From the NCBI GenBank assembly GCA_047651235.1, contig CP178758.1, positions 870,001 to 902,000 on the forward strand: a stretch of 32,000 nucleotides of DNA. The letters are read 5' to 3'. Shown piece by piece: positions 3,497 through 29,055 of this stretch (position 1 is its first letter; every line of letters starts with the position of its first letter). The notes beneath the pieces were generated by a model. It did no database searches, had not been told where the DNA came from, and saw nothing but the letters and a program-made list of their open reading frames with translations. The stretch is from Candidatus Electrothrix yaqonensis. Its GTDB lineage: Bacteria > Desulfobacterota > Desulfobulbia > Desulfobulbales > Desulfobulbaceae. A program made the translations under genes and the position numbers.

Positions 3497-3498
3497 AT

Positions 3499-4185: not shown

Positions 4186-4232
4186 TCAAAAAAATACCCG
4201 TCAATCGCCCTGATTATAACTTTATTCTTTTT

Positions 4233-5221: not shown

Positions 5222-5235
5222 GTGCCAAAGTAGAA

Positions 5236-8278: not shown

Positions 8279-9885
8279 TTCTACTTTGTCAACCATAACC
8301 TTTTGATCTATTTGTAAAAACTTCTTACAATATCCGGATAAAGTTGTATCTTTCATTAGGAAAATTTTATCGCTTTTTGATCAAGCTAGCACCTGATAAC
8401 AGCTATCAAAAAAATACCCGTCAATCGCCCTGATTATAACTTTATTCTTTTTATGAACGCTCCCAGCCCCGAAAAAAGAAGTCCCCATGACAAATTCTTT
8501 GAGTTGACCGGCATCGCCCGGCAACTTACGTCTTTTCACGAAAGATATCATCATTTTTTTAAGAGACATACGGTAAGTTTGTCAGATAAAGCATTCCAAT
8601 ACTTGAAAGGTTTATTCCAGTCTGACAAAAAAACATGGAACGTATGGAGGAAAAGGTTCCGGGCGTTAAATATGAGCCCCTCCAGTATTTTCTTTCCGAA
8701 TCGAACTGGGATTGGCGTCCTGTAAACAACCACGTAGCTAAAGATGCGGATAACATTTTTGGAGGAAAGGAAGATAGCGCTCTTTTTATTGATGAATCCG
8801 GGATACCCAAAAAGGGTAAAATGTCTGTTGGGGTTTCTCGTCAATGGTGCGGGCAGCTTGGTAAAACCGACAACTGTCAAGTAGTAGTGTTTGCAACTTT
8901 GGGATATGGTCGCTTTTCAACGCCGATCGACTGTCGGCTGTATTTACCGAAAAGCTGGACGGATGACAAGGAACGTTGTCTTAAGGCTAAGATTCCCGCC
9001 GACAAAATTGTTTTCAAAACAAAGCATGAACAGGCTCTTGACATGGTCTTCCATGCGCGAAAGAATGGCGTTCGTTTTAACTGGGTGGGTTGTGATGGTT
9101 TTTACGGGAAGAATTCTCAATTTCTTCGGAAACTTGATAATAACGATGAAAAGTTCATGGCAGATGTTCATAAAGACCAAATAATTTATAATTTATATTG
9201 AAGATCCCAACCCTGTCGTTCCAAAAGCAAAATCGAACAAAGGGAAACGCCCGAGCAAGCTCGAAGCACAAAAAGAAGGCATACGTGTTGATAAATGGGT
9301 GATGCAACAACTTAATAATGCATGGAAACGGGTGAAAGTTCGAAATACGACCAAAGGCAAACTCATTGTGGATATTCTGCATAGGGAAGTGGCTATGGGA
9401 CGGTAAAGAGGCTGAAGCAAGAAAATGGCATTTAGTTGTCAGACATGAGGTTAAGTCCCCGAAAAAAATTAAATATAGCCTAAGTAATGCGGAAAGTAAC
9501 ACGTCAACAAGACGACTTGCATATATGCAAGCTCAACGATATTGGGTTGAACGGCCATTTCAGGATGCAAAAAATGAATGTGGAATGGGTGATTATCAGG
9601 CTCGGGGATGGCTGGCTTGGCATCATCATATGACTATGGTCATGATGGCCATGTTGTTTATGGTCGAGCAACGATTATACCATCAAGTCGGTGTCCCGTT
9701 ATTGAGTTGCGCTGATATAACAACATTACTCAAGTCAATTTTCCACGTCGAGATGTAAACGAAGATGAAGTTATAAGACAGCTTTGTCAACGGCATGAAA
9801 AGAGGCAAGCTTCGATTGATTTCGCATATGAGAAACAACGGAATTGCAAATTATTACCACAGCCTTTGTGAGTGCCAAAGTAGAA
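8279..9885 (+). mobile_element. IS701-like element, copy 2 (full length ~1.6 kb, transposase frameshifted)
   Basis: IRL TTCTACTTTGTCAACCAT at 8279 and IRR ...GCCAAAGTAGAA ending at 9885. It carries an IS701-type DDE transposase reading frame. Confidence 0.8.
8453..9871 (+). pseudogene. IS701 family DDE transposase, multiple frameshifts
   Basis: The reading frame must switch at the A7 run near 8626-8632, near 9190, near 9400, and at a 1-nt deletion near 9740 relative to copy 1. DDE candidates are FIDESG, WVGCDGFYG and YWVERPF. Confidence 0.75.
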
Positions 9886-9887
9886 GT

Positions 9888-9965
9888 AAAGAAAATATGA
9901 AAATTCAATTCGACGAGTTTCTGCCGAAGTGGAATTATGCCGCTGTTCCGTCAGGACGGCTTTGA
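9888..9965 (+). pseudogene. possible C-terminal remnant of an ISAzo13-type transposase
   Basis: KENMKIQFDEFLPKWNYAAVPSGRL* carries the F-x3-WNY C-terminal signature that I associate with ISAzo13-family transposases. It is squeezed between two IS ends. Confidence 0.35.
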
Positions 9966-10075
9966 ATCCCGTAGTTATTAGACCTCCTGCAAAACTTGGT
10001 GATTTGACAGAAACGGCGGATGCTGATATTTTTTCGGTCACTTTTTCGATTATCAACCCCGGAGGTCTGAAAATC

Positions 10076-10303
10076 ATGCTCACATTCGAAAAACTCTCCC
10101 GCCGCCCTGAAACATTCCGCCGTCTGACCGGTGTCGATATTGATCTTTTCAACGGAATGACGGAAAAGATCCGCCCTTTATGGGAAGAGCGGAGAGATAA
10201 TTTTGAAAAGGGCGGGAGAAAGCACAACTTGGAAGGAGCTGAAAACCACCTTCTCGCCATGCTCCTGCGAAGTCTTCGCTTATCTATTACCGTTGTTACG
10301 TGA
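10076..10303 (+). CDS. IS5-family transposase, N-terminal HTH part (orfA)
   Basis: GGAGG SD, then MLTFEKLSRRPETFRRLTGVDIDLFNGMTEKIRPLWEE...HLLAMLL (HTH_Tnp_4-like). The frame ends where LIYYRCYVTYEFLSFFF continues in another frame. Confidence 0.65.
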   Translation: MLTFEKLSRRPETFRRLTGVDIDLFNGMTEKIRPLWEERRDNFEKGGRKHNLEGAENHLLAMLLRSLRLSITVVT

Positions 10304-10944
10304 CATATGAGTTCCTCAGTTTTTTCTTCGATTCCGATGAGACGACGGTGATGCGCGCAGTGAAACGGATGGAAAAAATCGCGGTACGGGTGATTCATAT
10401 TGAAAAAAAGCGTGAAATCACACGGGAAGATGCGGAATACCTGATAATCGATGCGACGGAGCAGCCGGTTCAGCGCCTGAAGAAAGGACAGAAGAAGTAT
10501 TACAGCGGAAAGAAGGGAAAACACACGCTCGGAACGCAGTTTACCGCCGGTCCCGACGGACGGATTTTTTCGGTTTCGGCGTCGTATCCCGGAAGTGTTC
10601 ATGATTTCAGGATATATAAGGAACAGAAGGGGCGGGAGCGTTTTCACGGTATTCCGAAGAAGGCCGACAGCGGATATCAGGGAATCGCGGCATATGACCG
10701 GCGCGCCGAAATTCCCTTTAAAAAGCCCCGGAACGGTGAACTGACCGCCGAACAGAAGGCATATAATCTTGATTTATCGAAAAAACGTATCAAAGTTGAG
10801 CATGTCATAAGAGAGGTGAAGGTATTTAAAATCATGTCGGAAACATACCGGAACAGGCTTAAAGGCCATAATATAAAGAAAAATATCATATCCGGCATAG
10901 TGAATATGAAGGTTGCGGCACGGAAAATGAAGAAAGCTGCCTGA
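10300..10944 (+). CDS. IS5-family DDE_Tnp_4 transposase catalytic part (orfB)
   Basis: YLIIDATEQPVQR, KKADSGYQG and KKRIKVEHVIREVKVFKI give a D, D, E triad in the Harbinger/DDE_Tnp_4 pattern. The true coding frame opens near 10270 and needs a frameshift from orfA, either programmed or a mutation. Confidence 0.75.
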   Translation: MTYEFLSFFFDSDETTVMRAVKRMEKIAVRVIHIEKKREITREDAEYLIIDATEQPVQRLKKGQKKYYSGKKGKHTLGTQFTAGPDGRIFSVSASYPGSVHDFRIYKEQKGRERFHGIPKKADSGYQGIAAYDRRAEIPFKKPRNGELTAEQKAYNLDLSKKRIKVEHVIREVKVFKIMSETYRNRLKGHNIKKNIISGIVNMKVAARKMKKAA

Positions 10945-11756: not shown

Positions 11757-14700
11757 ATGTCTTCCGCAGAAAATAATCCGAGACGCATAGCTGTTGTTGT
11801 AAACTCTCTGACCGGAGACGAACTGAAAGCTGGCAATAGAGATGTGTCACGCATCTACAGCCTTCTTACAAACCATGAACTCGGGGCATGTTCAATTGAT
11901 AGCCCTAAGCCACTCCATGAATGTAAGAGTTGCAATGAATTAAGGGGGAGTGTTGCACCGGTAATTGAAAACTGGCATTTGACTGACCAGTTTATATTTT
12001 ATTTCTCAGGACATGGAACAGTCCTAAATGGAAGGTATTGTTTGCAATTAGGTGCTTCTTCTGAAATTCTTCCTTTTGACTGCTTAATGATTGACCTAGA
12101 AGTTAAAGGAGTACAACGGGCTATTATCATTCTTGATGCTTGTCATAGTGGTGCCGCAATACAGGGAAGCAAGAATTCTGATATCCTTGCCTCAATCAAT
12201 AAGGGGACTATTCCAAAAGGAATTGCTATCATAGCCTCATCCAGGGCCAGTCAAACAAGTCATGAAATGCCGGATGGCTCGGCGAGTGTTTTTACAGACC
12301 TTTTATGCAACGGTATTGAAACAGGCTTAGATCTGCAATGTACTGCTAACGGGCTGATCTCTGTCGATGACATTGTCTCTTATATCAGCAATAAGCTGAA
12401 AGCAGATAAAAAGTATTCATCATTTCTGCAACAGCCTGTATTCAAGATTGATAAAGCGGAGCGACCTATTTGGCTTGCAAAGAACAAAAGCGGAAAAACC
12501 TCAAAAAATAAAACAACACGCATTCAACAGAACATCAGAACACCAGAGGAACTGAAATTACTCTACGAGAAGACGGTCTATACAGAACATCCCTGCTTGG
12601 GAGCTTCATTGGATGATTTAGATTGGTCATTAGTAGAGAGTTATGCAACGGAACTTGGTGAAGATAAAGGCGACATGCAAGATAGAGAGATTGTGCTCAC
12701 AAAGCTCAAATTTTTCTCTCCCCTTGAAAATAATCCTACATTACATCAGTCAGCTGTACTGTGCTTTGCTATGTATCCAGAGAGGATGTATTCTCAGGCT
12801 AAATCAAATTTTGTCCTTGGAGATCAAGGAGAGGAATCCTTTGAACGACATGAAGTGAAAGGGCCGCTGAGTATTCAGATAGAGGAATTAATAAGAAAGA
12901 CCAAGCAGTCTCTCCGCAAAACGTCATCAATAGCGGATAGCGGAAAACGAGTAGAACAGTACGAGATTGATCAGAATCTAATACGAGAGCTTATCTCTAA
13001 TGCAGTTACTCATAGAGATTACCGATCCAACGGTGTCGTTAAAGTAACCGTTAATTCAGATTATATAGAAATTCAGAGTCCTGGTTCCTTTCCAGGCCAC
13101 TTGTCATGGGCAGAACTTCTCAAGTGTTCAGCTTATCCCGTTTCCAAACCTGTAAACGGAGCAATCTCTCAGTATTTGGCTCAGTTATTGGTATTTGAGG
13201 GAATAGGGCGTGGTTTTCGTATAATTCACAATTACATAACCGAGCATGGCAAGGAGAGCATTAAGTTTAAAGAACTACCTGGCCCGACAACTTCGGTGCG
13301 AATATTACGCCCTCGTGATCGAAATTTTGCTCATGGAGTGGTTACTGCGGCAGGTGAACAAAATATTGTTCAAGGAGCAGGTTCGCTAGGCAGGCAGGTC
13401 AATATTGCTCAAGATGTGAAAGGAGATGGCAATATATTCTCTGGCAGAGCAGAAAATATAACCTATCATCATTATCCCCGTCCTTCTGTTCCCCAACTCT
13501 TTCCGCCGCAAGACGACATCTTTCTTCATCGCGAGGAGGAACTCACTTGGCTGTATGAGCACCTGCATCCTGATAGGGTGGTTGCCATCTGTGGGCCGGG
13601 AGGGATGGGAAAGAGTGCCTTAGCCGCCCATGCGGTGCGTAAGTTACCCGCTGACCGCTTCTCGGACGGTATAGTCTTTCATTCCTTTTATCATCAGCCG
13701 GATACCACAATGGCCCTCCAGACTATTGCTCAAGCTTTTGGTATTGCAGCGGAGGCAGACCTAGAGCAGCTTGTGCGTAATGCCTTGATTGGTAAGCAAG
13801 CTTTGCTCATCCTTGACGGTACAGAAGAGGCTGAGGATCTTCGGGCCGTGTTAGATCTGCGAGGTGGCTGTGGCGTGCTCATCACCACTAGGAAAAAGAG
13901 TGACTCTGGATCACTTCGCCTAGAGTTGTCGCCCCTGTCTGATGACCAAGCTGAAGACATGTTGCGTGCTTGGGGCGAAATCAGTGACAACCAGCAAACC
14001 ATAGAACAGCTCTGTAGTTTGTTGGGTGGTTGGCCCATAGCACTGCGCCTAGCCGGGAACTATTTACGTAGCACCGGCGAGTCTGCAACGGACTACCTAC
14101 GCTGGTTACAGGAGGAGCCGTTCAAAGAGCTGGGGGATAGTGAGGAGCATCAGCGTGACAATGCAACCCTACTGCTCAAGCAGAGCACGGCCCAGGTGGG
14201 GGAGGATGCCCGCCTTGTGCTGGAACTGGCAGGCACCTCGGCTTATGATCTGCTGTCCGTTGCGCCCATGACCGTTCTGCTGGAGGACGATGAACTCCGC
14301 ACCCGCAAGGCCGTGAACGAGCTGGTCAATTACGGCCTGCTGGAACGCCGGGGAGAACGCCTGCATATAGGCCATGCCCTGATCCATGAGTACGCAGCCC
14401 GGAACCTGCCCCTGAGCAGGAAGGCACTGGCGCGGGTGGCCAGCTATTATATAGCTTGGTGCAGGGAACAGAGTGCTGCCGGCGTACCGGGTTATGCCCT
14501 GCTGGATGATGAGCGAACACATTGCCTGCGCCTGATACGTGCCTGTTTGGACAGTGGGCTGTGGCAGGAGGTGAAAGGGTTGGTTGAAGCAATCTCGCAG
14601 TACCTTGACCGGCAGGGTTGGTGGACAGAGCGACTGACCGCCTTGGAGATGCTCCTGACTGCGACCCGCAAGGCTGGCGAACGCATGGATGAAGGAGAAT

Positions 14701-15350
14701 GTCTGAATAACTTGGGCTACACCTGTTGGCGACGCGGGGAGTTTGAGCAGGCTCTTGCATGGCACGAACAAAGCCTGCCCATAATCCGTGAGCTGAGAGA
14801 CCGACAAGGAGAAGGCGTACTTCTGAATGACATTGGCAATATTTATAGAGAACAAGGCAAGTATGAGCAGGCCCTGCAATATTATCAGCAGAGTTTGAGC
14901 ATCCGGCAGGAAGTCGATGACCGGGAGGGGGCAGGGGTCGCACTAAACAATATTGGTCAGCTTTATTATTACCAAGGCAACTACGAGCAAGCCTTGCAGT
15001 ATTATGAGCAATGTTTACCCGTCATGCGAGAAGCAGGCGATAAAATCGGGGAAGGGACAACCCTGAACAACATTGCCACTATCCGCCGTACCCGAGGTGA
15101 GCCGAGCAAGGCTCTGGAGTATCATCAACAAGCCTTGACTATCAGCCGTGAGCTTGGTGACCGGGCCGAAGAAGCACAAAGCTGCTTAAATATCGGTCTT
15201 ACCTATCATGACTTGGACGATCTAGTTCAGGCCGAAGAGCACATTGCCTTGGCTGTGGAGATCGCAGAGGCCATCGGATATCCTGCTTTAGAGGAATGGC
15301 GGGAGGAGTTGGGGAAGGTTCGAGAAAAGCGACAAGACAAAATGATATAA
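11757..15350 (+). CDS. caspase (C14) / AlbA_2-HATPase_c_4-like / NB-ARC STAND NTPase / TPR fusion protein
   Basis: Caspase dyad FYFSGHG (His86, 12012-12014) and ILDACHSG (Cys129, 12141-12143). Middle module with LISNAVTHRDY, IEIQSPG and FEGIGRGFRI. Walker A GPGGMGKS (13593-13616), Walker B LLILDG (Asp687, 13815-13817), LITTRKK, GGWPIALRLAG. Five 40-aa TPR units at the C-terminus. Confidence 0.9.
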   Translation: MSSAENNPRRIAVVVNSLTGDELKAGNRDVSRIYSLLTNHELGACSIDSPKPLHECKSCNELRGSVAPVIENWHLTDQFIFYFSGHGTVLNGRYCLQLGASSEILPFDCLMIDLEVKGVQRAIIILDACHSGAAIQGSKNSDILASINKGTIPKGIAIIASSRASQTSHEMPDGSASVFTDLLCNGIETGLDLQCTANGLISVDDIVSYISNKLKADKKYSSFLQQPVFKIDKAERPIWLAKNKSGKTSKNKTTRIQQNIRTPEELKLLYEKTVYTEHPCLGASLDDLDWSLVESYATELGEDKGDMQDREIVLTKLKFFSPLENNPTLHQSAVLCFAMYPERMYSQAKSNFVLGDQGEESFERHEVKGPLSIQIEELIRKTKQSLRKTSSIADSGKRVEQYEIDQNLIRELISNAVTHRDYRSNGVVKVTVNSDYIEIQSPGSFPGHLSWAELLKCSAYPVSKPVNGAISQYLAQLLVFEGIGRGFRIIHNYITEHGKESIKFKELPGPTTSVRILRPRDRNFAHGVVTAAGEQNIVQGAGSLGRQVNIAQDVKGDGNIFSGRAENITYHHYPRPSVPQLFPPQDDIFLHREEELTWLYEHLHPDRVVAICGPGGMGKSALAAHAVRKLPADRFSDGIVFHSFYHQPDTTMALQTIAQAFGIAAEADLEQLVRNALIGKQALLILDGTEEAEDLRAVLDLRGGCGVLITTRKKSDSGSLRLELSPLSDDQAEDMLRAWGEISDNQQTIEQLCSLLGGWPIALRLAGNYLRSTGESATDYLRWLQEEPFKELGDSEEHQRDNATLLLKQSTAQVGEDARLVLELAGTSAYDLLSVAPMTVLLEDDELRTRKAVNELVNYGLLERRGERLHIGHALIHEYAARNLPLSRKALARVASYYIAWCREQSAAGVPGYALLDDERTHCLRLIRACLDSGLWQEVKGLVEAISQYLDRQGWWTERLTALEMLLTATRKAGERMDEGECLNNLGYTCWRRGEFEQALAWHEQSLPIIRELRDRQGEGVLLNDIGNIYREQGKYEQALQYYQQSLSIRQEVDDREGAGVALNNIGQLYYYQGNYEQALQYYEQCLPVMREAGDKIGEGTTLNNIATIRRTRGEPSKALEYHQQALTISRELGDRAEEAQSCLNIGLTYHDLDDLVQAEEHIALAVEIAEAIGYPALEEWREELGKVREKRQDKMI
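14697..15296 (+). repeat. tandem coding repeat: five ~120-nt TPR units
   Basis: Units begin ECLNNLGYTCW, VLLNDIGNIY, VALNNIGQLYY, TTLNNIATIR and QSCLNIGLTYH, each with a xYEQALQYYxQ-type core and a RExxDRxGEG linker. Confidence 0.7.
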
Positions 15351-15447: not shown

Positions 15448-16293
15448 TCATCGCCTTGTTTCGTCTCTGATCGCCTCAATTTCATCCTTTGATAAACCTG
15501 TCAGGGTTGAGATTAACTGGATATCAAGCCCTTGCTTCAGCCCGTTGCGTACAATTTCTCTCCCCCTTGCAGCCTTTCCCTCTTCATAATAGGTGTCCAT
15601 GGAGCTTTTCAGATCCCAGTAATCTTTTAAACTCTCCTGATAATCCTGTTGTTCCAAGGGATCAAACTTGGCCAGCTCAGCAATCTCAATCAGTCGTTTA
15701 AAAATGCCTGCGGCGAGTTCTTTGGGATGATCTTGGAGGCGATGAAGATTTTTAAAGGCATAGAGCCAGCGGTCATAATCTGAGCGCAGCTCCTCAAGGG
15801 CCTTTTTGAATTTAGGAATCTCCAGATAGATAAAGGTCAATTTATCGTAAAAGACCTGCCTGGTCTCCTGTTCCATCAATTTTACCCGATGATGAAGCTT
15901 GTCCTGATCAGCATCATCAAAACAGAAATCCAGGATGCCGATGGTGTAGACGCTCTTCAGCTCGTATTTCCAGTCTTTACCCTTTGCGGCCTGTTCCTGC
16001 ACGGCAAAGGTGGAATAGTAGAGACTGCGATCTTTGAAGAATTTCTGTTTGACCCGTTGTATCTCAACGATAAATTTCTCGCCCTGTTCATTGGTGCAGT
16101 AGAGGTCAAAGACGGCGTTTCGGTCCCTTGTTGTTTTGCCCAGGCGTTCACCGTTGAGGTAGGTGAGGTGCTTTATCTGTTCTTTATCATCCAGGAGTTC
16201 GTTTAAGAAAGCAATCAGCAGGTCCTTGTTGGGTTCTTCGCCGAAGACCTTTTTGAAGCCGTAATCTGTGAACAGATTGATATAGCGATCCAT
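15448..16293 (-). CDS. Rpn family recombination-promoting nuclease / PD-(D/E)XK putative transposase
   Basis: MDRYINLFTDYGFKKVFGEEPNKDLLIAFLNELL...AVFDLYCTNEQGEKFIVEIQRVKQ...IGILDF is the classic TIGR01784/Rpn-type N-terminus and D...E-x-Q/K nuclease core. Confidence 0.85.
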   Translation of the reverse strand: MDRYINLFTDYGFKKVFGEEPNKDLLIAFLNELLDDKEQIKHLTYLNGERLGKTTRDRNAVFDLYCTNEQGEKFIVEIQRVKQKFFKDRSLYYSTFAVQEQAAKGKDWKYELKSVYTIGILDFCFDDADQDKLHHRVKLMEQETRQVFYDKLTFIYLEIPKFKKALEELRSDYDRWLYAFKNLHRLQDHPKELAAGIFKRLIEIAELAKFDPLEQQDYQESLKDYWDLKSSMDTYYEEGKAARGREIVRNGLKQGLDIQLISTLTGLSKDEIEAIRDETRR

Positions 16294-16392: not shown

Positions 16393-17979
16393 TCAGTTAT
16401 GCTCCCTGGTCTTGTGAAAGACAATATCCGGGAACAGCTCGGCAATGTGATTGAGGCGCCACTGCCCGTCTGCCAGAAAGGCCAGATGACCTTCCGCATC
16501 ATAGGCGAGATTGCCCTGATTTCTGGCCTCAAATGCCTTGAGTTTTTTGGGATCGTCGCAGCTGATCCAGCGTGCCAGGTTGTAGTTGACGGTTTCGTAG
16601 ATTGCATCCACGTTGTATTCGGCCTTGAGCCGGGCCATGGTCACCTCGAACTGCAGCACACCCACAGCACCAAGGATGTAATCGCTGCCCATGATCGGTC
16701 GGAAGAGCTGAACTGCGCCTTCTTCGGCCATCTGCATCAGACCCTTGTGCAGCTGCTTGGTTTTGAGCGGATTTTTCAGCAGCACCCGGCGGAAATGTTC
16801 CGGGGCAAAGTTGGGAATCCCGGTGAATTTAAGCGGTTCCTTGTCCGTAAAGGTATCGCCTATCTTGATGGTCCCGTGATTGTGGATGCCGATGATATCA
16901 CCCGGATAGGCTTCATCCACATTGGTGCGGTCCTGAGCCATAAACACGGTGGCCTTGCTCAGATTCACCTCTTTGCCTAACCGGTGGTGTTTCACCTTCA
17001 TGCCTCTGGTGAACTTGCCGGAACAGATGCGGAAAAAGGCGATCCGGTCCCGATGGGCCGGGTCCATGTTGGCCTGAATTTTAAAGGTGAAGCCGCTGAA
17101 AGTCTCTTCTTCCGGCGAGACCGCACGGGTGATTGCCGCACGGGGGCCGGGAGCTGGCGAGAGCTCGACAAAATTGTCCAGCAGCTCTTTGACCCCGAAA
17201 TTGTTGATGGCGCTGCCGAAAAACACCGGGGTCTGCCCGGCGTTGAGATAGTGTTCGTATTCAAAGGGATCGGCTGCACCCTGGAGCAGTTCGACATCCT
17301 CCCGCAGCTGATCAGCATCATGACCAAGCAGCTCGTCCAGCCGGGGATCATCCAGCCCCCTGACCACCACCCGGTCTTCCGGCCGGGTATTCTGGCTCGG
17401 GGTGAACAGGTTGAGTTCGTTGCGGTTCAGGTCGTACACACCCTTGAAGCCCTTGCCCATACCCACGGGCCAGGAAAGCGGTGCGCACTCGATCTGGAGT
17501 TTTTCTTCAATATCAGCCAGGATATCCAGCGGGTCCATGCCGTCCCGATCCAGCTTGTTGATAAAGGTGATGATCGGGGTGTCGCGCATCCGGCAGACCT
17601 CCATCAGCTTGGTGGTCTGGGCCTCCACGCCCTTGGCCGAATCAATCACCATCAGGGCCGAGTCCACGGCTGTAAGCACCCGGTAGGTGTCCTCGGAAAA
17701 GTCCTGATGGCCCGGAGTGTCCAGTAGGTTGATCTCAAAATCCCGGTAATTGAATTTCATCACCGAGGTGGTCACGGAAATGCCGCGTTCCTGCTCGATG
17801 GACATCCAGTCACTGGTGGCGTGGTTCGCTGTCTTGCGCGATTTGACCGCCCCGGCCATTTTAATGGCCCCGCCGAAGAGAAGGAGCTTTTCCGTCAGGG
17901 TGGTCTTGCCTGCATCCGGGTGGCTGATAATGCCGAAGGTGCGGCGTCGCTGTATTTCTTTTGTCAATCTGCTGCTCAT
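16393..17979 (-). CDS. prfC: peptide chain release factor 3
   Basis: [58 protein letters not shown] and INKLDRDG are translational GTPase motifs in the RF3 arrangement. 528 aa. Confidence 0.95.
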
Positions 17980-21216: not shown

Positions 21217-23577
21217 CTAATACGGCCGCATCGTCCAGATACCACAGGGGCAGGTGTCGGCGCAGAAGCCGCAGGCAATGCACTTGTTATCATCAGACAC
21301 ATACTTGTAGTTCACGCCGTCCACTGCCTGCTCATCAGGAATTTCCTGGCGGGAAATAGCGTGGGTCGGGCACATGGTCTCGCAGAGATGACAGTCCCGG
21401 CAGGCACCGCAGCTCAGGCAGCGGGCTGCCTGCTGGTTTTCCGTATCCCCCTTTTCCTCTGCCGGGTCGTAATGGGCAATGGTCAGAGTCTCGTACTGAA
21501 TAAGTTTCTTGGCAAAGGGCTGCCAGGTCTCATTGTTGATGGCTGCCACCAGATACTCTGCTGTCCGCTTGGCCGCGCCTAGGGCATTGGTGGCTAGACC
21601 AGGCCGTTCCACATCGCCCACAGCCAGAATTTTTTCATCGCTGGTCCGGCCTGCCTCATCGGTTTTGATCCACGAACCACCGGCAATTTCCATAACCTCA
21701 ACGCTGTCCGGCAGGAAAGGTAGACTGGGCACATCGCCGATGGAGATGATCACGGTCTGGGCCGGAAGCAGCTCGTCCTTATCCGTGACCAGCCCTTCTT
21801 CCGTGATTTCCTTGGTCATGATCGGCCACTTGAACACCGCCCCCAGAGCCTCGGCTGCCTCACGCTCCTTGCCGAAAGCCAGCGGCTTCTGGATATCTAC
21901 CAAGGTTACTTCCTCGGCACCGAGGCGATAACATTCAGCTGCCACGTCACAGCCCACATTGCCTGCCCCGATGATGACCACCTGCCTGCCGGTGGTCATC
22001 GGTTCCTCACTCTTGGCCGCCTTGAGGTAATCCAGGGCCGGGATAACCCGCTCATGGCCGGAAAAAGGAATGGTCTTGGGCTGATGGGTACCCACTGCGA
22101 CAATGATGTACTCGTACTCGTTCTTCAGCTCCTCCAGCTTTTCCCTGGTCATGTTCACGCCGAGATGAACTTTGATCAGGTCATTTTTGCGGAAACGTTC
22201 CACCTCCATATCCCAGATTGCCTTGGACAGCCGCTCCCAGGGAATAGTCTGGGCCAGTTTGCCGCCCAGCTCATTGCTCCGTTCATAAATATGGACCTCA
22301 ATACCGGCCAGGGCCAGATGCCAAGCCGCACCCATCCCGGCCGGTCCTCCGCCGATGATTGCCACCTTATGGCCGGTGGCCGGTTCGGAAGGGGGAGGAT
22401 CAACATTGTGCACTGCCTGCCCGAGTACGGCAACATCAATGGAGTAGTCCACCTTTTTCCGGGAGCAGTTCTGGATGCAGAGATTGGGGCAGATGGTGCC
22501 GCAGACCGAAGCCGGGAAAGGCGTGTAGCGCAGCAGCATCTCGTAGGCTTCGTCGTTCCGCCCCTCGCGGATCAGCCGCAGCCGGTCGATGGTCGGGATG
22601 TGCATGGGGCAGTAATAGGTGCAGGGCGCGGCAGAATCACGGTTGACCCAGTAGGGCCTGCGCCGCCGCATTTCGCCGGTCTCTACCACGCCGACAACTG
22701 ACCGGTCCAGTCCCGGCGCCAAGTCACGCAGCGGGTCGCCGCCGCCGAAGCCGTTGTTCCAGATGCGATGGGCAAACTCGGCCATAGGCATGGGGCCGGA
22801 AAACATCAGGGCCCGTTCCTGAGCAGTTACTGCAGTGAGCAGATTCCATTCCTCACGCCTGCTCATAGTCTCCAGCAATTCCGGACGACCGATGGCCTCC
22901 AGATAGCCGGACATTCTGTCCATAAGCCACTGCCATTCCTCGTCGTTCGGCTGGGTCAGCTTGGCGTTGGTCCGGGAATAGCTGTCATCGGTCTCGCCCC
23001 GAAAATAGACTGTCCCACCGACCATACCCACGCAGGGACGGTAGCCGAGCACATTGTCGGGATTCTTGGCTTCATGGCCGCAGATGACGCCGATGCCGCC
23101 GCAGTTGAATTCGGCAAAGGTATCTCCCACAGAGCCGAGCACCCACATCTCCGGCTTTTCATAATCCGGATTCCACTTGGTCATGGTCAGGCCGCGCGCC
23201 CCGATGGACCCGCCGATCATTACCCGCCCCCCGGCCATGGCGTTGCAGACCCCGTTGGTGGCATCGCCCTTGACAATGATATCCGCGCCGATATTCAGGT
23301 AGCCCACGTCGTCCGAGGCTGACCCTTCGCAGATAACTGTTGCACCGGGCATTCCCATACAGCCTACCCGCTGGCCCACCGGTCCTTTCACCTGGATAGT
23401 CAAGGGACGTTCCAAGTTACCGAGCCGCAGACCGATATTATGCTGGCCAAAGGATTCCAGGATCAGCTCGTCAGCATCAACGGCTGCACCGCGCACCTCT
23501 TCTTCAAATATTTTGGACGTCAGCCGCAGACCCTTTGCGTCCGTGCCGCTTATGGTAATTGTTTTTCGCTCGCTCAT
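21217..23577 (-). CDS. glutamate synthase GXGXG domain fused to GltD-like FAD/NAD(P)H oxidoreductase and 2x[4Fe-4S] ferredoxin
   Basis: N-terminal GXGXG beta-helix repeats (GPVGQRVGCMGMPGATVICEGSASDDVGYLNIGADIIVKGDATNGV...). Dinucleotide folds VAIIGGGPAGMGAAW and VVIIGAGNVGCDVA. C-terminal CLSCGACRDCHLCETMCP and CIACGFCADTCP. Confidence 0.9.
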   Translation of the reverse strand: MSERKTITISGTDAKGLRLTSKIFEEEVRGAAVDADELILESFGQHNIGLRLGNLERPLTIQVKGPVGQRVGCMGMPGATVICEGSASDDVGYLNIGADIIVKGDATNGVCNAMAGGRVMIGGSIGARGLTMTKWNPDYEKPEMWVLGSVGDTFAEFNCGGIGVICGHEAKNPDNVLGYRPCVGMVGGTVYFRGETDDSYSRTNAKLTQPNDEEWQWLMDRMSGYLEAIGRPELLETMSRREEWNLLTAVTAQERALMFSGPMPMAEFAHRIWNNGFGGGDPLRDLAPGLDRSVVGVVETGEMRRRRPYWVNRDSAAPCTYYCPMHIPTIDRLRLIREGRNDEAYEMLLRYTPFPASVCGTICPNLCIQNCSRKKVDYSIDVAVLGQAVHNVDPPPSEPATGHKVAIIGGGPAGMGAAWHLALAGIEVHIYERSNELGGKLAQTIPWERLSKAIWDMEVERFRKNDLIKVHLGVNMTREKLEELKNEYEYIIVAVGTHQPKTIPFSGHERVIPALDYLKAAKSEEPMTTGRQVVIIGAGNVGCDVAAECYRLGAEEVTLVDIQKPLAFGKEREAAEALGAVFKWPIMTKEITEEGLVTDKDELLPAQTVIISIGDVPSLPFLPDSVEVMEIAGGSWIKTDEAGRTSDEKILAVGDVERPGLATNALGAAKRTAEYLVAAINNETWQPFAKKLIQYETLTIAHYDPAEEKGDTENQQAARCLSCGACRDCHLCETMCPTHAISRQEIPDEQAVDGVNYKYVSDDNKCIACGFCADTCPCGIWTMRPY

Positions 23578-23588
23578 AGGTATAAGGA

Positions 23589-24314
23589 TCAGTGATTATG
23601 GGCTGCCCGCCCGTGTATCTGTTCTTCTTTCATTATCCGGATAATCCGTTCATCAAGGCAGGAACGGAGAAAAACGTTCATTTGCTGCTGGTCGCCGCTT
23701 TCATAAAAAGTGAGCATCAGCTGATTGAATTCCAGTTGCCGCTTCGCCGGAAGGTTAATCGCCGGGTAGCCGTGAGTCAGCAGGAAACCGTTCATCATAA
23801 ACCGGCCCGTACGTTTATTGACATCATAGAAAAACTGACATCGGGCCATAGTCAGAAAAAAATGAATGGCCCGGTCATAGACATCAGCAATTTCTTCGGC
23901 CTGTTCGAGCATTTTGTTAAACAGATCCGTCAGCTGCTCTGCCGGAGGCGGCATGTATTCAGTTCCCGCAATGGTTACGCCACCGGAGCGGAACTTTCCC
24001 CATTCCAAGGCATCTTCTTTGGCCGCAATCCCATGCAGCGTACAGGCTATCTCGGCACTAACAGTAAACCGGTCGTTCTTCACCAAGGCAAAGACTTCCT
24101 GCCAGGCATTGGACTGATTCAGGACAATCTGCTGATCACTCAACTTATGACCGCCAACGGTTATGCCGTCCAGCAGGGTCTGTACTTCCGGCAGGGTATA
24201 GTTGAGCCCCTCAAGATTAACCGCATCGCAAACCAATTCGGATAATTGCCGCTTGGCCAGCATCATGGCCTTGGCCCGGTTCGGCGGCATGTGCCAGTGG
24301 GAATCTATCATCAA
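23589..24314 (-). CDS. Fic/DOC family protein with degenerate active-site motif
   Basis: Fic-fold pattern (NLEGLNYTLPEVQTLLDG..., LHGIAAKEDALEWGKFRSGGVTIAG). The HPFxDGNGRxxR motif reads QFFYDVNKRTGR, so His is replaced by Gln and both Gly are lost. Confidence 0.75.
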   Translation of the reverse strand: MMIDSHWHMPPNRAKAMMLAKRQLSELVCDAVNLEGLNYTLPEVQTLLDGITVGGHKLSDQQIVLNQSNAWQEVFALVKNDRFTVSAEIACTLHGIAAKEDALEWGKFRSGGVTIAGTEYMPPPAEQLTDLFNKMLEQAEEIADVYDRAIHFFLTMARCQFFYDVNKRTGRFMMNGFLLTHGYPAINLPAKRQLEFNQLMLTFYESGDQQQMNVFLRSCLDERIIRIMKEEQIHGRAAHNH

Positions 24315-24328
24315 CCTGAAAAATTCCG

Positions 24329-24820
24329 TCAGTTAAATTTCCACTTCTTATATTGCAGGCTGACAGGACTTTTTGTAAAATCCGAACGGGTCATCTGTCC
24401 ATCAACGGAAAAATGACTGACGGTTCCGTCATCCGCGCAGAGCCATACCTCCACAGCTCCTTTGGCGAGATACAGTTGTATTTTTTCTTCCATTTCTTCC
24501 CGGCTGTTGGACGGGCTGACGATTTCAATGCATATTTCCGGTGCTTCTTCATACGGGGTTGCCTCGCCGTTCCGCTGCATAAATTCTTCTGAAGCCCAGG
24601 CGACATCAGCAACCTTCACGCCGTCATCAGTCTTGATGGAGCATTCGACGATCACACGCCCAGCGGGAAGTTTCCTGCGGAGGTAATAAACAGCCTCTGA
24701 CTGGAGAATGCCGTGATGATTGCTGGCCGGGCTCATCAGAATTTTCCCCCATTTATTCAGCTCAATCTTAAAGGGGAGATTCTGAAGATACGGATTCGCT
24801 ATGACGCTTGCCCAGTCCAT
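24329..24820 (-). CDS. Uma2 family (DUF820) PD-(D/E)XK endonuclease
   Basis: VADVAWASEEF...APEICIEIVSPSNSREEMEEKIQLYLAKGAVEVWL is the Uma2 signature (D...E-I-x-S-P-S...K...Y...G...E-x-W). Confidence 0.85.
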   Translation of the reverse strand: MDWASVIANPYLQNLPFKIELNKWGKILMSPASNHHGILQSEAVYYLRRKLPAGRVIVECSIKTDDGVKVADVAWASEEFMQRNGEATPYEEAPEICIEIVSPSNSREEMEEKIQLYLAKGAVEVWLCADDGTVSHFSVDGQMTRSDFTKSPVSLQYKKWKFN

Positions 24821-24841
24821 TACTGTTTGCTCTGCCAGTAT

Positions 24842-25186
24842 TCAGTCTGTTTTTTCATACAGTATTTTTCCAGTCTTCTTTATTTCATTGCAAAAAGAGC
24901 TTTTATTTTTCTGGATGATATCGTACTCACCCTTTTGTATATACGAGTAGATCAATGGGAATTTTTTTACTCAATTTATAAATTTTCTTGCGGACCAACA
25001 TCTTATTCCGCATCTTCTCGGCATAATTTTTTGCTATTCCAAGAGAGTCCAGCACGACGAGTAAATCAAGGTCGCTGTCCTCTGTAAAGGAATCGCCAGC
25101 ATATGAGCCGAACAAAATTATTTGATAGGGATCAGTCTTCCTGATATTTTTTACTATTTCAGGAAGATATTTTTTTTATCTTCCAT
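24842..25186 (-). pseudogene. MNT/Pol-beta-type nucleotidyltransferase, two frameshifts at homopolymers
   Basis: The ATG at 25186 abuts the protease stop. Frame is lost at the A8 run (plus-strand T8, 25170-25177); A9 would give MEDKKKYLPEIVKNIRKTDPYQIILFGSYAGDSFTEDSDLDLLVVLD. A second shift at GGG (24930-24932) separates ...LLVYTKG from EYDIIQKNKSSFCNEIKKTGKILYEKTD*. Confidence 0.7.
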
Positions 25187-26113
25187 TTATTTTTCCTTCA
25201 AAACAAAATTTATACTATGGTCACCTTTCCCCACAATTGAGACTTCTTTTTCAAGATAATACCAGCATACCATTTCGAAAAGATTCATAAATTGATAAAT
25301 CGAATTGGCCAAGTTGTACTCATCTGTATCTTTTTTTACAATTGTCTTTCCTAATAACTGTTCTGACTCATCAACATCAATAACAAATGAATGATCCTTA
25401 TAATGATTAGTAAAATGATCTCCTAAACTTTCGGGGGTTGAACCAGATGGGAGTTTTTTATTACTTAATAACCTAGAAGCATATTGAGCGGCAGATTCAT
25501 TGACCCTTTCAAAATACCCTAAAACAGAAAGACTGAGATTATCCTTTAGAAAACGACTAAACATTTCAGATGACTTCGGATATTCAGAAGAAAGTTCAGC
25601 TATTTTTCTCAGAGCATTGGACATTGCTACAGCAGGAAGTTTGTTTATTTGAGGATCTATCGGTCCTATTTCGCTCATAAGGCCCATATGAATCTCATCG
25701 GCTCCTAATGAAATAAGAGTTGCTGCTGACTTAGCACGCCTTGGGATAGCAACACTAAACTTTTTCTTTGCAAGTCTTTTACATGATTTACTAATCAAAT
25801 ATGCTGGCTCAATGCTTCCGCCACGACTGTGAATAATTAACAAAACATCAATTTGTTTTTCTACACTACTAAGAGCCCGATAAATAGCATCCGAATGATT
25901 ATGGCTTATTGAACGATTATCGTCATATAAAAAAATTATATTATATTTCTTCTCAAGACCAGATGACCTAATCAAAGAATCAATATGACCAAGAACGGTA
26001 TTCTTAATAAACTCTTCATTTTCCTTGTGATTTTGAACCAGATTAATCACCTCTGAAAAATCATCAAGATCAAGTTTTTCTTCTTCTTGTTCTACTTCCT
26101 CTTTTTCAGGCAT
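25187..26113 (-). CDS. SDH-family Clp-fold serine protease
   Basis: LLIIHSRGGSIEPAYLISKSCKR...VAIPRRAKSAATLISLGADEIHMGLMSEIGPIDPQ matches the SDH/ClpP-fold serine proteinase core as I recall it. Acidic N-terminus. Markedly AT-rich (~32% GC in a sampled line). Confidence 0.7.
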   Translation of the reverse strand: MPEKEEVEQEEEKLDLDDFSEVINLVQNHKENEEFIKNTVLGHIDSLIRSSGLEKKYNIIFLYDDNRSISHNHSDAIYRALSSVEKQIDVLLIIHSRGGSIEPAYLISKSCKRLAKKKFSVAIPRRAKSAATLISLGADEIHMGLMSEIGPIDPQINKLPAVAMSNALRKIAELSSEYPKSSEMFSRFLKDNLSLSVLGYFERVNESAAQYASRLLSNKKLPSGSTPESLGDHFTNHYKDHSFVIDVDESEQLLGKTIVKKDTDEYNLANSIYQFMNLFEMVCWYYLEKEVSIVGKGDHSINFVLKEK

Positions 26114-26141
26114 TCTTTTCCTTTAAAATAACACGTTGTAA

Positions 26142-26172
26142 TGCACCGCCTCATTCTTGGTAAGGCGGTGCA
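26142..26172. other. 9-bp perfect hairpin at the island/operon junction
   Basis: TGCACCGCC-13 nt-GGCGGTGCA lies between the stop of the FMN-domain gene (26186) and the protease start (26113). The T/A runs are on the wrong side for a canonical terminator on the gene strand. Confidence 0.35.
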
Positions 26173-26185: not shown

Positions 26186-27826
26186 CTAACAGGCGTACTT
26201 AATCCCCAGCTTCTCCGCCGCATCCGCATCATCAATGCCGAGGGCGTCGGACATGCCGATGGGCAGGCTCTGGGAACGCCCAAGCGGAGCCATGATTTTC
26301 TTCATCTCCGTCCTGATGGACATGAAGGTTTCAGCCACCCGCTGGGCGACATCATCCGGGTCCAATCTGCGAAAGAGCTTTTCGTTCTGGCTGGTGATGC
26401 CCTTGGGACAGATGCCCACGTTGCAGACATTGCAGCGGCCCAGCTCATTGCCCAGGCAGCCCGCGCAGGCCTGCATGATGTACTTGCCGATATGTACGCC
26501 GGACGCGCCGAGCATAATCAGGGCCATACCGTTCTGGGTCACGTTGCCGTTCTTGCCCACCCCGCCCGCAGCAAAAAGCGGAATTTCGTTCTGGCGGCCC
26601 TGGGCGACCAGTTCCTGATAGCATTCGCGCAGGTTGGAGGCAATCGGATGACCGGTGGCATCCATAGAGACGTTATAGGCTGCCCCGGTACCACCGTCGA
26701 TGCCGTCGATGAGCAGCCCGGAAGCATAGGGATTGCGCACCAGATTATTGAGCACCGACTTGGCTGAGTTGGAAGCGGAGATCTTGGGATACACCGGTAC
26801 CCGGAAACCAAAGGCCATCGACAGGGTCTGGATCATTTTCATGACACTCTCCTCAATCGAGTAGAGCGTCTGATGCACGGGCGGGGAGGGCAGGTCAACG
26901 CCTTCCGGCACCCCGCGCAGGCGGGCGATCAGCTTGGAGACCTTGAACCACATGAGCAGGCCGCCATCACCGGGCTTGGCGCCCTGACCGTACTTGATCT
27001 CAATAGCTGCCGGATCACACTGCATCTCCGGGATAGCCCGGATAATCTCGTCCCAGCCGAAATAGCCGGAGGCGATCTGCAGAATAATATACTTGAGGAA
27101 CGGGCTTTTCAGCACCCAAGGCGGACATCCGCCCTCACCGGTCGCCATGACCACCGGAATACCCAGAACCTCATTACAATAGGCAACCCCCTGAAGCAGG
27201 CCGAGCCACATATTGGGGGACAGCCCGCCGAAGGACATGGAGCCGATGACAAAGGGAAAAATTTCCCGGGTCGGCGGAATCCACTCACCGGCAGCCTTGC
27301 GGCGGATGTACTCTTCCGGCGGCAGAACCCGACCGAGAACAGTGTTGGTGTTGAACTCATGCCGGCCTGCATCCAGAGCCGGGTCGGTAAGCATGGAGAT
27401 CCGACCGAAGGAAATGCGGTCCAGGATGGTCCGGCCCGGCACATTGCGGCGGCCGCCCCGTTTCCAGGATTCACCCTTCTGGTCCATATGGAATTTGGAC
27501 CGTTGTTCGTTGGAATTCGGCTTGGGACTGATGGCCTCATTCGGACAGACTGAAGCGCACATACCGCAGCCGATGCACATTTTGTCCACCTCGGTATTCT
27601 GCCGGATGCCGACAAAATGGCGGTACTCGTTGCCGCGCTTCTTTTTCAGGATATCCAGCTTGGGCACCCGCTGCCTGCGGTAGGTCAGGTAGATAGCCTG
27701 CTTGGGACAGACTGCCGTGCATTGACCGCACAGGGTGCAGCGGTCTTCGCGGTGCTCTATAATCCAGGGCAGATCAACAGGGGTCAGGCTGCTTGGCTGA
27801 GTGTAAACTGATCGAACTGAGACCAT
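26186..27826 (-). CDS. glutamate synthase FMN-binding domain protein with N-terminal 2x[4Fe-4S]
   Basis: CTLCGQCTAVCP and CIGCGMCASVCP, then a GltB domain-2 core (GSMSFGGLS, IKYGQGAKPGDGGLL, PPVHQTLYSIE, DGIDGGTGAA, LFAAGG). It overlaps the upstream gene by 43 nt. Confidence 0.9.
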   Translation of the reverse strand: MVSVRSVYTQPSSLTPVDLPWIIEHREDRCTLCGQCTAVCPKQAIYLTYRRQRVPKLDILKKKRGNEYRHFVGIRQNTEVDKMCIGCGMCASVCPNEAISPKPNSNEQRSKFHMDQKGESWKRGGRRNVPGRTILDRISFGRISMLTDPALDAGRHEFNTNTVLGRVLPPEEYIRRKAAGEWIPPTREIFPFVIGSMSFGGLSPNMWLGLLQGVAYCNEVLGIPVVMATGEGGCPPWVLKSPFLKYIILQIASGYFGWDEIIRAIPEMQCDPAAIEIKYGQGAKPGDGGLLMWFKVSKLIARLRGVPEGVDLPSPPVHQTLYSIEESVMKMIQTLSMAFGFRVPVYPKISASNSAKSVLNNLVRNPYASGLLIDGIDGGTGAAYNVSMDATGHPIASNLRECYQELVAQGRQNEIPLFAAGGVGKNGNVTQNGMALIMLGASGVHIGKYIMQACAGCLGNELGRCNVCNVGICPKGITSQNEKLFRRLDPDDVAQRVAETFMSIRTEMKKIMAPLGRSQSLPIGMSDALGIDDADAAEKLGIKYAC

Positions 27827-28920
27827 ATCAGGAGTTCCTTTCGTTCTGGTGGAATAATAACAGTGTGTTCACGCATGGGCTGGAAATCAAGGGATGGGTC
27901 GCGGTCCGGCACCAGAGCATCGACGCCGCACATTTCCGAGGCAATGGCCCAGGCTCCGGGGCGACCGCCGACCGTGGCAGGACGCAGTTTTTTGGCATCC
28001 ATCACCAGCATGCAGGTTTCATCGGGCAGGGTGCCGATCACCGCATTGGGACCGTCGATGATCAGGCGGCGGCAGGCTGTGCGCAGCCCTTTGAGAAAAT
28101 CCCCTTGGGGATGGGCATCCAGCTCTTCCGTCTTCAGCGGGGTGATCACATGCTTGTAGGCAGCCAGGGGCAGGCCGAGCTTTTTGGTCACATAATGGAG
28201 GATATGGGCAAAAACCTCGGAGTCGGACTGGTAGCCCATGTAGCCGGGAATTCTCTTACCTTCCAGCCATTCCTTAATCGGCACAAAAGCGGTGTTCTCG
28301 CCGTTGGTCATAGTGGCGACGCCCTGAATGAAGAAGGGATGGCAGGCGTAAAGATTAATACCGTAATTGGTGTTCTGCCGCCCCTGAGCCATAACCACCC
28401 GTGCCTTGATCCGGCCATCGTTCAGGCCGAGAGCATCCCCCACCTCCAAAGGCCAGCCCACCTCTTTGATCATAACCACATCAGGCCAGAAAGAGAAGAT
28501 GGTCAGGTCATTGCCGTGTTCCTCGCCATCTTTCCGCAGATTGAGACGGGTCTGCATAAACCGGTCTTCGAGTTCCGCTTCAGTCAGTCTTTCCGGTTTC
28601 TTATAGACCCGGACAATATACTGGAACCGGTCTTTTGCCTCGATCAGATCCGGATTGATTTTAAACCAATGGTCGTATTTCTGCTCAAAGCCCTGTTCCT
28701 CCATAAGCCGCTGCAGGCGCCGGGCAGCTGCCTCGGTATGGGCAATACCGGACAGGATGACCTGATCCTCTTTTTTATATTTAAAATCTTCAAAACTGAC
28801 ACCGCGCAGCAGCAGACCGAGACCGCTGCCGTCATACCCCTCCTGCATGGCCTCCATGCCGGTCAGCACCTCATAGGGTGAAAAGGGGATATCTGCGGTT
28901 TTCAGGGCTAATCGACACAT
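27784..28920 (-). CDS. class-II (Ntn) glutamine amidotransferase, GltB domain-1-like
   Basis: Starts MCRL (Cys directly after Met, the Ntn nucleophile). Also GYDGSGLG, AQGRQNTNYGINLYACHPF and TNGENTAF. Confidence 0.9.
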   Translation of the reverse strand: MCRLALKTADIPFSPYEVLTGMEAMQEGYDGSGLGLLLRGVSFEDFKYKKEDQVILSGIAHTEAAARRLQRLMEEQGFEQKYDHWFKINPDLIEAKDRFQYIVRVYKKPERLTEAELEDRFMQTRLNLRKDGEEHGNDLTIFSFWPDVVMIKEVGWPLEVGDALGLNDGRIKARVVMAQGRQNTNYGINLYACHPFFIQGVATMTNGENTAFVPIKEWLEGKRIPGYMGYQSDSEVFAHILHYVTKKLGLPLAAYKHVITPLKTEELDAHPQGDFLKGLRTACRRLIIDGPNAVIGTLPDETCMLVMDAKKLRPATVGGRPGAWAIASEMCGVDALVPDRDPSLDFQPMREHTVIIPPERKELLIWSQFDQFTLSQAA

Positions 28921-29026: not shown

Positions 29027-29055
29027 ACAATACAAAAAAAGGGGCAATCTGTCAA
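29027..29055 (-). promoter_or_regulatory. candidate sigma70 promoter for the glutamate synthase operon
   Basis: On the minus strand: TTGACA (29055-29050), 17 nt, TATTGT (29032-29027), about 100 nt upstream of the GATase ATG. Pattern match only. Confidence 0.3.

Follow-up and report, generated by a model that had tools for sequence, protein, structure and literature searches.

A variable array of accessory genes at an intergenic junction of the split glutamate synthase operon in Candidatus Electrothrix yaqonensis

We analysed a 32,000-nucleotide (nt) stretch of Candidatus (Ca.) Electrothrix yaqonensis DNA (contig CP178758.1 of assembly GCA_047651235.1, positions 870,001 to 902,000 of the forward strand; hereafter the window, numbered from its first letter), in which the operon for a split glutamate synthase (GOGAT) is interrupted by 2.6 kb carrying four further genes. 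Seven minus-strand open reading frames (ORFs), three belonging to GOGAT and four to the insert, were confirmed at the coordinates reported by a first-pass annotation of the same sequence. The first GOGAT gene (27784..28920) encodes a divergent glutamine amidotransferase-like protein of 378 aa (GltB domain 1) with a Cys at position 2, and overlaps by 43 nt with the second (26186..27826), which encodes the FMN/glutamate synthase core together with two [4Fe-4S] ferredoxin domains. The third (21217..23577) encodes a GXGXG domain fused to a GltD-like FAD/NAD(P) oxidoreductase with Fe-S domains. Between the second and third genes, here called the FMN and GXGXG/GltD genes, lie in order a gene for an SDH-family ClpP-fold serine protease (25187..26113), the pseudogene of an MNT-type nucleotidyltransferase (NTase; 24842..25186), a Uma2-family gene (24329..24820) and a gene for a Fic/Doc-fold protein with the non-canonical motif QFFYDVNKRTGR (23589..24314), all on the minus strand. 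The protease gene lies 72 nt from the FMN gene, and the gaps that follow are 0, 21, 14 and 11 nt. The split minus-strand GOGAT, its overlap, the co-orientation of the four genes and these small gaps had all been described by the first-pass annotation and were reproduced here.

The FMN subunit matches Glu_synthase (PF01645) with an E-value (E) of 5e-59 and 200.8 bits against a cutoff of 20.4, and several Fer4 families match its two ferredoxin domains. The GXGXG/GltD product matches PF01493 with 39.7 bits (cutoff 32.5), as well as Fer4_20 (PF14691), Pyr_redox_2 (PF07992) and Fer4_7. The FMN protein is 94-96% identical to its Electrothrix orthologues, making the window Electrothrix-like by this measure, with a ratio of non-synonymous to synonymous substitution rates (dN/dS) of 0.03-0.07. 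GC contents of the GOGAT genes are 0.55-0.59 overall and 0.64-0.74 at third codon positions (GC3). For the 378-aa first subunit, sequence searches of Pfam, NCBIfam and PDB returned no matches. The names given to its homologues at source are either 'glutamate synthase domain-containing protein 1' or 'glutamine amidotransferases class-II', and Cys2 is invariant among them. A low-confidence AlphaFold model (predicted local distance difference test, pLDDT, of 54), used as weak support only, was submitted to Foldseek, where the top seven PDB matches were all GOGAT large subunits (template modelling, TM, scores 0.41-0.47). On the basis of the source names, the invariant Cys2 and this model, the first gene probably encodes the amidotransferase (GATase) subunit.

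One genome per species was scanned with the FMN subunit, yielding 80 Desulfobulbales loci for comparison (loci from relatives are denoted by L-numbers, such as L083). In 73 of these, only 6-218 nt (median 63) separate the FMN gene from GXGXG/GltD, in line with the first-pass view that the four genes of the window interrupt an otherwise contiguous operon. A wider gap of 0.8-4.7 kb is seen in five loci of the Ca. Electronema clade, and the same interruption occurs in all the Ca. Electrothrix loci that were found via close homologues of the Fic-like protein of the window. A metagenome scan with this protein returned 12 loci, adding two arrays (L092 and L093) and no new type of context. All 11 distinct cable-bacterial arrays bear an insert (the window, L081, L083, L087, L092, L093, L002, L004, L005, L006 and L007), and none of the sampled cable bacteria shows a reversion to the empty, contiguous state. 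When the three GOGAT proteins were concatenated for a tree, all insert-bearing loci grouped as one clade in 200/200 bootstraps, with the insert-free L001 and L003 as their sister group. A tree of the FMN subunit only had put L001 and L003 beside Electrothrix; it is superseded by the bootstrapped concatenated tree.

The native leader of the GXGXG/GltD gene, approximately 25-30 nt long (23578..23602, minus strand, in the window), is preserved in all cable-bacterial loci and can still be recognised in the insert-free L001. The simplest history suggested by these comparisons is a single insertion, in front of the native leader, in the common ancestor of Ca. Electrothrix and Ca. Electronema. All sampled cable bacteria seem to share the array as a derived character. 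No description of the GOGAT-junction locus was found in a search of the cable-bacteria literature. At the same junction in an unrelated Desulfobulbia lineage (L066), a co-oriented DsrC-like gene is present (3713-4048; PF04358, E 5e-25), indicating that the FMN | GXGXG junction is permissive outside cable bacteria too.

The content of the array is unique to each genome, and the four-gene combination of the window recurs in no other genome compared. Reading from the FMN gene, the window array consists of SDH, the MNT pseudogene with a HEPN stub, Uma2 and Fic. The L083 array consists of MNT, HEPN, MqsA-like, Asp-protease-like, BrnT, BrnA-like, Uma2, p217 and Fic genes, and that of L087 of a 75-aa gene, MqsA-like, genes of 128, 162 and 67 aa, p217, HEPN, MNT, DUF2281, PIN and Fic. 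L081 carries PIN-like, a 75-aa gene, p213, HEPN, MNT and Fic. In L093 the order is BrnT, BrnA-like, MNT, HEPN, MNT, Fic and a 295-aa membrane protein gene, and in L092 a 96-aa gene precedes a BrnA fragment fused to Fic. L002 has only DUF4160, DUF2442 and Fic; L004 has DUF4160, DUF2442, three low-GC ORFs, HEPN, MNT and Fic; L005 has a GHKL ATPase, Uma2, p210, DUF4160, DUF2442, Fic and a 204-aa gene; and L007 has genes of 158 and 95 aa, DUF2281, PIN and Fic. The L006 array is a collapsed remnant. Families represented across the arrays include HEPN/MNT, BrnT, PIN, DUF4160/DUF2442, Uma2, GHKL ATPase and MqsA-like. The same two core GOGAT genes enclose eleven differing contents, as is expected of a horizontal-transfer hotspot.

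Approximately 64 gene instances were counted over the 11 arrays, and every called gene lies on the operon strand. Co-orientation of 4/4 genes in the window alone is unremarkable; over all arrays it is not a matter of chance. What remains in L006 (11638-12485) is a DUF2442 fragment connected directly to the final ~100 nt of the Fic-like gene, and then the native GXGXG/GltD leader; an array can thus disappear while its operon survives. In L092 (2573-3445), the BrnA-like antitoxin fragment and the Fic-like gene are joined in frame and form a single ORF of 290 aa. Within the window, GC3 climbs along the array from 0.24 (protease) through 0.46 (NTase) and 0.54 (Uma2) to 0.60 (Fic-like). The first-pass assignment of the inserted genes to toxin-antitoxin (TA)- and defence-type families was upheld: the NTase matches MntA, the SDH protease homologues examined adjoin AbiJ-like and restriction-modification (RM) genes, and weak PADLOC matches (E 1e-7 to 6e-9), each a single-gene candidate, were obtained for the NTase (PDC-S09), Uma2 (PDC-S03) and Fic (PDC-S04/SoFic) genes.

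The Fic-like protein matches PF02661 (E 7e-11, 43.3 bits against a cutoff of 24) and aligns over residues 28-223 with human FICD (E 3e-8), with HPFIDGNGRTSR opposite QFFYDVNKRTGR and an inhibitory-helix-like AVNLEGL opposite TVAIEGN of FICD. The canonical HxFx(D/E)GNGRxxR motif is altered in QFFYDVNKRTGR by His to Gln, Gly to Val and Gly to Lys replacements, giving a Doc-like D-x-N-K-R core. This is a property of the family, since the motif QFFYDVNKRxGR, with Gln at the position of the catalytic His, is near-invariant in 124 homologues. The missing His makes a canonical AMPylase or Doc-type kinase mechanism unlikely. With the Fic/Doc family (FICD/HYPE AMPylases and the phage P1 Doc kinase) the protein shares the Fic fold, the xxxLEG motif, the D-x-N-K-R core and a trailing Arg. 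In contrast to that family, it has the Gln substitution throughout, lacks a Phd-like partner and is ~230 aa long (Doc, 126 aa). It scores 19.4 bits against TIGR01550 (cutoff 38.65), and the gene upstream of it changes from array to array, which leaves it without a constant antitoxin-like partner; together with the absent His, this sets it apart from Doc. An Rfam scan gave a single sub-threshold match on the opposite strand of the gene (23922-24273, plus strand), to the mammalian lncRNA MIAT_exon5_3 with 24.5 bits against a gathering score of 90, which was dismissed as chance; nothing else was returned by that scan.

The cable-bacterial copies of the Fic-like gene form one clade, with Electrothrix and Electronema sub-clades. 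The gene adjoins GXGXG/GltD in 10 of the 11 arrays, and the eleventh (L006) retains its last ~100 nt. Against its orthologues dN/dS is 0.07-0.16, and the synonymous divergence (dS) within Electrothrix (0.55-0.87) resembles the 0.76-1.0 of the FMN gene on its flank, which fits vertical co-divergence. In Electrothrix the ORF is extended by 11 codons into the native GXGXG/GltD leader, which holds its last codons and stop codon. Taken together, the comparisons argue that the Fic-like gene has been at the junction since before the Electrothrix/Electronema split, as the constant anchor of the array and under purifying selection. The wider family has more than 2,000 members at ~70% identity over Desulfobacterota and Gammaproteobacteria. 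Members with ~70% identity and the QFFYDVNKR motif are found without a GOGAT neighbour in Thiothrix, Desulfobacula and other genomes; outside cable bacteria the gene is never beside GOGAT and is often, not always, among small TA-type genes. The family is not GOGAT-specific. Homologues at 64-66% identity also occur on Piscirickettsia plasmids, 41 of which match the query. On one of these (L110, Piscirickettsia salmonis plasmid NZ_CP039208.1, 3489-4760), the homologue is 66% identical and a small 'recombinase family protein' gene begins 3 nt behind it, both being flanked by IS6 transposase genes.

The Uma2 protein matches PF05685 (E 7e-17, 61.9 bits against a cutoff of 27), which places it in this PD-(D/E)XK-fold family as a putative nuclease. 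Orthologues are present in the same array of Electrothrix L083 (89% aa identity) and Electronema L005 (87%), with dN/dS of 0.07-0.09 and dS near that of the flanking genes. This suggests that Uma2, too, has resided at the junction under purifying selection since before the two genera split. A gene of ~215 aa that is missing from the window array is 81-84% identical between Electrothrix and Electronema arrays (L083 7351-8004; L087 5928-6581; L081 6649-7290; L005 13695-14327; L099 147-776), and adjoins Uma2 in two. It has no Pfam match and carries D...E.K-like motifs, and a distant paralogue follows the Fic-like gene in L005. As a constant partner of Fic, the gene of 217 aa that precedes it in L083 was considered and rejected: conserved among cable bacteria, it is nevertheless missing here, and it shows no relationship to the neighbour of the same length in L109.

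The NTase pseudogene was delimited by alignment to the intact 114-aa NTase of L083, which lies at the same position after the FMN gene and with which it shares 82% nucleotide identity. A fragment ORF remains at 24927-25115, and two 1-nt frameshifts lie inside 25166-25180 and 24922-24938 (an A-run deletion and a GGG insertion). The sequence matches PF01909 and, below cutoff, NF047752 (MntA), and retains the MNT GS...DxD core. Next on the same strand comes a 12-codon ORF (24820..24858; MKKQTEYWQSKQ followed by a stop codon), the first ~26 nt of which match exactly the beginning of the L083 HEPN gene (137 aa). Eight of the 12 codons are homologous, and the stop codon overlaps the Uma2 ATG by 1 nt. 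The HEPN homology ends where it joins the Uma2 start, pointing to a deletion. Comparison with L083, where the pair is intact, thus indicates that the NTase is the decaying orphan antitoxin of a HEPN/MNT pair whose toxin gene has been deleted. Decay of an orphan antitoxin after toxin loss is expected for such a module (PMC7641770). Both frameshifts are at homopolymers and may reflect sequencing error; against this, deletion of the partner HEPN gene is genuine, and the window's long ORFs are uninterrupted. The locus resembles the type VII HEPN/MNT (HepT/MntA) TA system (PMC7641770) in its MNT core, its NF047752 match and the HEPN start that follows as in L083. That system needs an intact MNT and an intact HEPN gene, and with the toxin deleted and the antitoxin frameshifted the module is non-functional in the window.

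The SDH protease matches PF01972 (E 5.6e-15, 55.5 bits against a cutoff of 31.3), and scores 75.7 bits against the NCBIfam equivalog NF047768, for which the cutoff is 250. It is full length relative to its nearest homologue, which is 78% identical and encoded on an unrelated 7.4-Mb contig. No homology was found between the flanks of the protease gene and the locus of that homologue. The gene has a GC content of 0.337 (GC3 0.239), and a counterpart is present in none of the ten other cable-bacterial arrays. Composition and distribution thus suggest that the protease is a recent, horizontally acquired insertion, and the sole recent arrival among the four genes of the window. No target duplication was found around the SDH insertion; a short AAGGAAAA similarity at both ends of the gene was considered as an insertion trace and discarded, being at the level of ribosome-binding sites only. 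A pairing of the protease with the NTase was likewise rejected, as the NTase is at the site without the protease in L083 and L093.

Probable traces of gene entry are visible in the relatives. In L083, a 76 nt duplication of the Uma2 5' end brackets the BrnT pair. In L087, a 38 nt duplication of the Fic 5' end brackets the DUF2281/PIN pair, and a ~100 nt duplication of the FMN 3' end with its hairpin (see below) brackets the MqsA-like pair. L004 provides a weaker case of 25 nt. The duplications in L083 and L087 span a start or stop codon and copy the local target. By their arrangement they match 'insertion with long target duplication', a mode described for RM systems, in which repeats extending over a start or stop codon keep the target genes whole (PMC2853133; traced there to Nobusato et al. 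2000). As in that mode, local-target repeats of more than 30 bp flank the L083 and L087 inserts without a transposase or integrase; the difference is that the mode is known for RM systems, and here surrounds TA pairs inside an array.

A putative sigma-70-like promoter, TTGACA-17-TATTGT, is located at 29027..29055 on the minus strand, 106 nt upstream of the first GOGAT gene. It is the best match of the promoter scan (10/12 positions), and the block TTTGACAGA..CTTTTTTTGTATTGTCAAGT is conserved in Electrothrix L081, L083 and L087. Of all promoter and terminator scan matches, only this conserved operon promoter was used. Inside the array, only weak 5-bp terminator-like stems and no promoter-like site above chance were detected. 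Co-orientation and the lack of a convincing terminator make read-through from the operon promoter plausible, and judging by this layout the array genes are probably read with the GOGAT operon. Just after the FMN stop codon, folding identified a stable hairpin with a 12-bp stem and a 7-nt loop (26142..26172, minus strand), present in one copy in the window. The surrounding 81-nt stretch has a minimum free energy of -27.7 kcal/mol (z = -4.0), with no U-tract directly after the hairpin. Orthologues in L081, L083 and L087 reach -27 to -36 kcal/mol (z -5 to -6) and show compensatory changes. This hairpin could stabilise the upstream transcript, attenuate read-through or act as a recombination-prone site.

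We consider it likely that the 2.6 kb is a snapshot, in this genome, of an ancient accessory-gene array under continual remodelling, which occupies the single intergenic junction of the GOGAT operon in cable bacteria. The state found in the window comprises a recent low-GC protease, the wreck of a HEPN/MNT pair and two long-term residents, Uma2 and the Fic-like gene. The space upstream of the Fic-like anchor gains and loses small TA- and defence-type genes, always in operon orientation. New genes would enter by long target duplication at start or stop boundaries, keeping their neighbours intact, and exit by deletion. Having no convincing promoters or terminators of their own, such passengers would depend on the conserved operon promoter, with transcription continuing across them into GXGXG/GltD. 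An insertion in antisense orientation, or one that ends transcription, would deprive the operon of its third GOGAT subunit and hence be purged, which is the proposed reason for the strict co-orientation. The cargo would be selfish or defence modules as opposed to GOGAT components, and linkage to GOGAT may slow its loss. Several observations weigh against this account of a remodelled array. No direct repeat of at least 25 nt was found in the window array, leaving the proposed mode of entry unsupported for the window and for the SDH gene. PADLOC identified no complete known defence system in the window array and gave no match for the protease. TA modules usually bring their own promoters. In consensus scans, promoter-like sites occur at chance frequency and terminator-like sites at ~2 standard deviations above chance, and the very stable hairpin after the FMN gene could attenuate read-through. 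The distance of 10-17 nt between the Fic-like and GXGXG/GltD genes in Electrothrix, with strong purifying selection on the former, would also fit domestication.

Domestication would make the Fic-like protein, possibly with Uma2, an accessory or regulatory part of GOGAT, for example a nucleotide- or subunit-binding pseudo-enzyme translationally coupled to GXGXG/GltD. The position of its gene immediately upstream of GXGXG/GltD in 10/11 arrays, its low dN/dS and co-divergence with the flanks, and the extension of the Electrothrix ORF into the native leader are all consistent with such a role. We nevertheless judge it improbable, as family members with the same motif lack a GOGAT neighbour in Thiothrix, Desulfobacula and others, members at 64-66% identity occur on plasmids, genes have been inserted between the Fic-like and GXGXG/GltD genes in L005 and L093, the Fic-like gene is lost in L006, and other Desulfobulbales have the same GOGAT without it. 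The junction might instead be a neutral, permissive site holding tolerated junk with its own TA promoters and no benefit, with co-orientation reflecting purging only. The collapse of the L006 array without damage to the operon, the pseudogene and gene stub of the window, the unrelated DsrC-like gene in L066 and the quick turnover of content all agree with this, and it is less easily reconciled with purifying selection on the Fic-like and Uma2 genes over two genera, or with the absence of any reversion to the empty state in the sampled cable bacteria. We regard it as rather unlikely; it departs from the remodelled-array explanation only on why the array persists, a point that sequence alone cannot decide.

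The first-pass annotation had suggested that the four genes could be a hitchhiking addiction or defence cassette stabilised by its place in an essential operon, which would make them a single unit of insertion. Co-orientation, tiny gaps and membership of all four genes in families typical of TA and defence islands are compatible with such an event, and yet this proposal did not survive the comparison and is now very improbable. GC3 ranges from 0.24 to 0.60 over the four genes, the Fic-like and Uma2 genes are common to Electronema, the NTase derives from a different, partly deleted module, the protease is in no other array, and the four-gene combination was seen in no other genome compared. The genes thus differ in age and history, and a lineage-wide variable hotspot is found in place of a cassette. 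Nor are the same four genes conserved in relatives with a metabolic role: only the Fic-like gene is constant, and it also occurs without GOGAT elsewhere. Small, co-oriented, apparently promoterless, TA-rich genes behind one upstream promoter would also be expected of an integron-like, recombinase-driven cassette array. There is scant probability of this, given that no integrase was seen among the genes called beside the array in the loci examined, that genes only 0-21 nt apart cannot accommodate attC sites, and that no repeat is common to the gene boundaries of the array, the duplications being copies of the local target. A more elaborate variant of the remodelled-array explanation, which we put forward as speculative and unlikely, is that the junction acts as an integrase-free gene-capture platform. 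Promoterless TA and defence cassettes would be caught repeatedly, at the boundaries of start or stop codons, by long target duplication, expressed from a nitrogen-operon promoter and retained because their deletion risks the operon. The Fic-like gene would be an entrenched anchor, perhaps with a role of its own or coupling expression of the array to that of GXGXG/GltD.

Other accessory and mobile genes were noted elsewhere in the window. A HigA-like 'addiction module antidote' gene (3188-3979; PF21716) lies downstream of and co-oriented with ligA; an upstream toxin ORF of at least 90 aa is absent from the ORF list. Behind it, an IS200-type transposase gene runs on the opposite strand, within low-GC sequence (3500-5500). 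Transposase fragments (DDE_5, DDE_Tnp_4) form a low-GC cluster at 8453-10944, and a 1197-aa caspase (Peptidase_C14)-NB-ARC-TPR protein is encoded at 11757-15350. Caspase-nSTAND-WD40 relatives occur directly upstream of the GOGAT operon in other Electrothrix (L081 1-2459; L083 1-1775). A gene of a PD-(D/E)XK 'transposase' family (15448-16293; PF12784, E 8e-74) adjoins prfC (16393-17979), and in other Electrothrix loci prfC is closer behind the GOGAT operon than in the window.

If the array genes are co-transcribed with the operon, the electron-input subunit of GOGAT would be expressed only after transcription through a changing set of selfish or defence genes, and expression of the array genes would be tied to the control of nitrogen assimilation. 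The 11 states in two genera, with an insert-free sister lineage for comparison, form a natural series that addresses how addiction and defence genes colonise and persist in an operon, how orientation constrains inserts, and how long target duplication operates on TA modules. The locus also points to a large and highly conserved family (>2,000 members) of Fic/Doc-fold proteins lacking the catalytic His.

Among known systems, 'operon insertion' of RM systems comes nearest to this arrangement. In Helicobacter, a PabI-family RM system lies between the genes for the large and small chains of glutamate synthase, on the operon strand (Kojima et al. 2015, PMC4615327). For such insertions, post-segregational killing has been suggested to force the host to keep and express the operon (PMC4615327; Furuta et al. 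2010, PMC2853133). The cable-bacterial case differs from that of Helicobacter in that the cargo consists of TA-type singletons and pairs, and in forming a multi-gene array of species-variable content that is fixed over two genera and has a conserved anchor gene. Sedentary chromosomal integrons are similar in their small, co-oriented, largely promoterless and TA-rich genes with an upstream promoter, and are set apart by the integrase, attC sites and common boundary repeat, none of which was seen at or near the locus. Defence islands and transfer hotspots are characterised by variable TA and defence content between core genes, with fast turnover, pseudogenes and remnants. The GOGAT array likewise shows variable content, turnover and remnants between core genes; in contrast to those regions, its bounding genes are consecutive cistrons of one enzyme operon, whose orientation the inserted genes must match.

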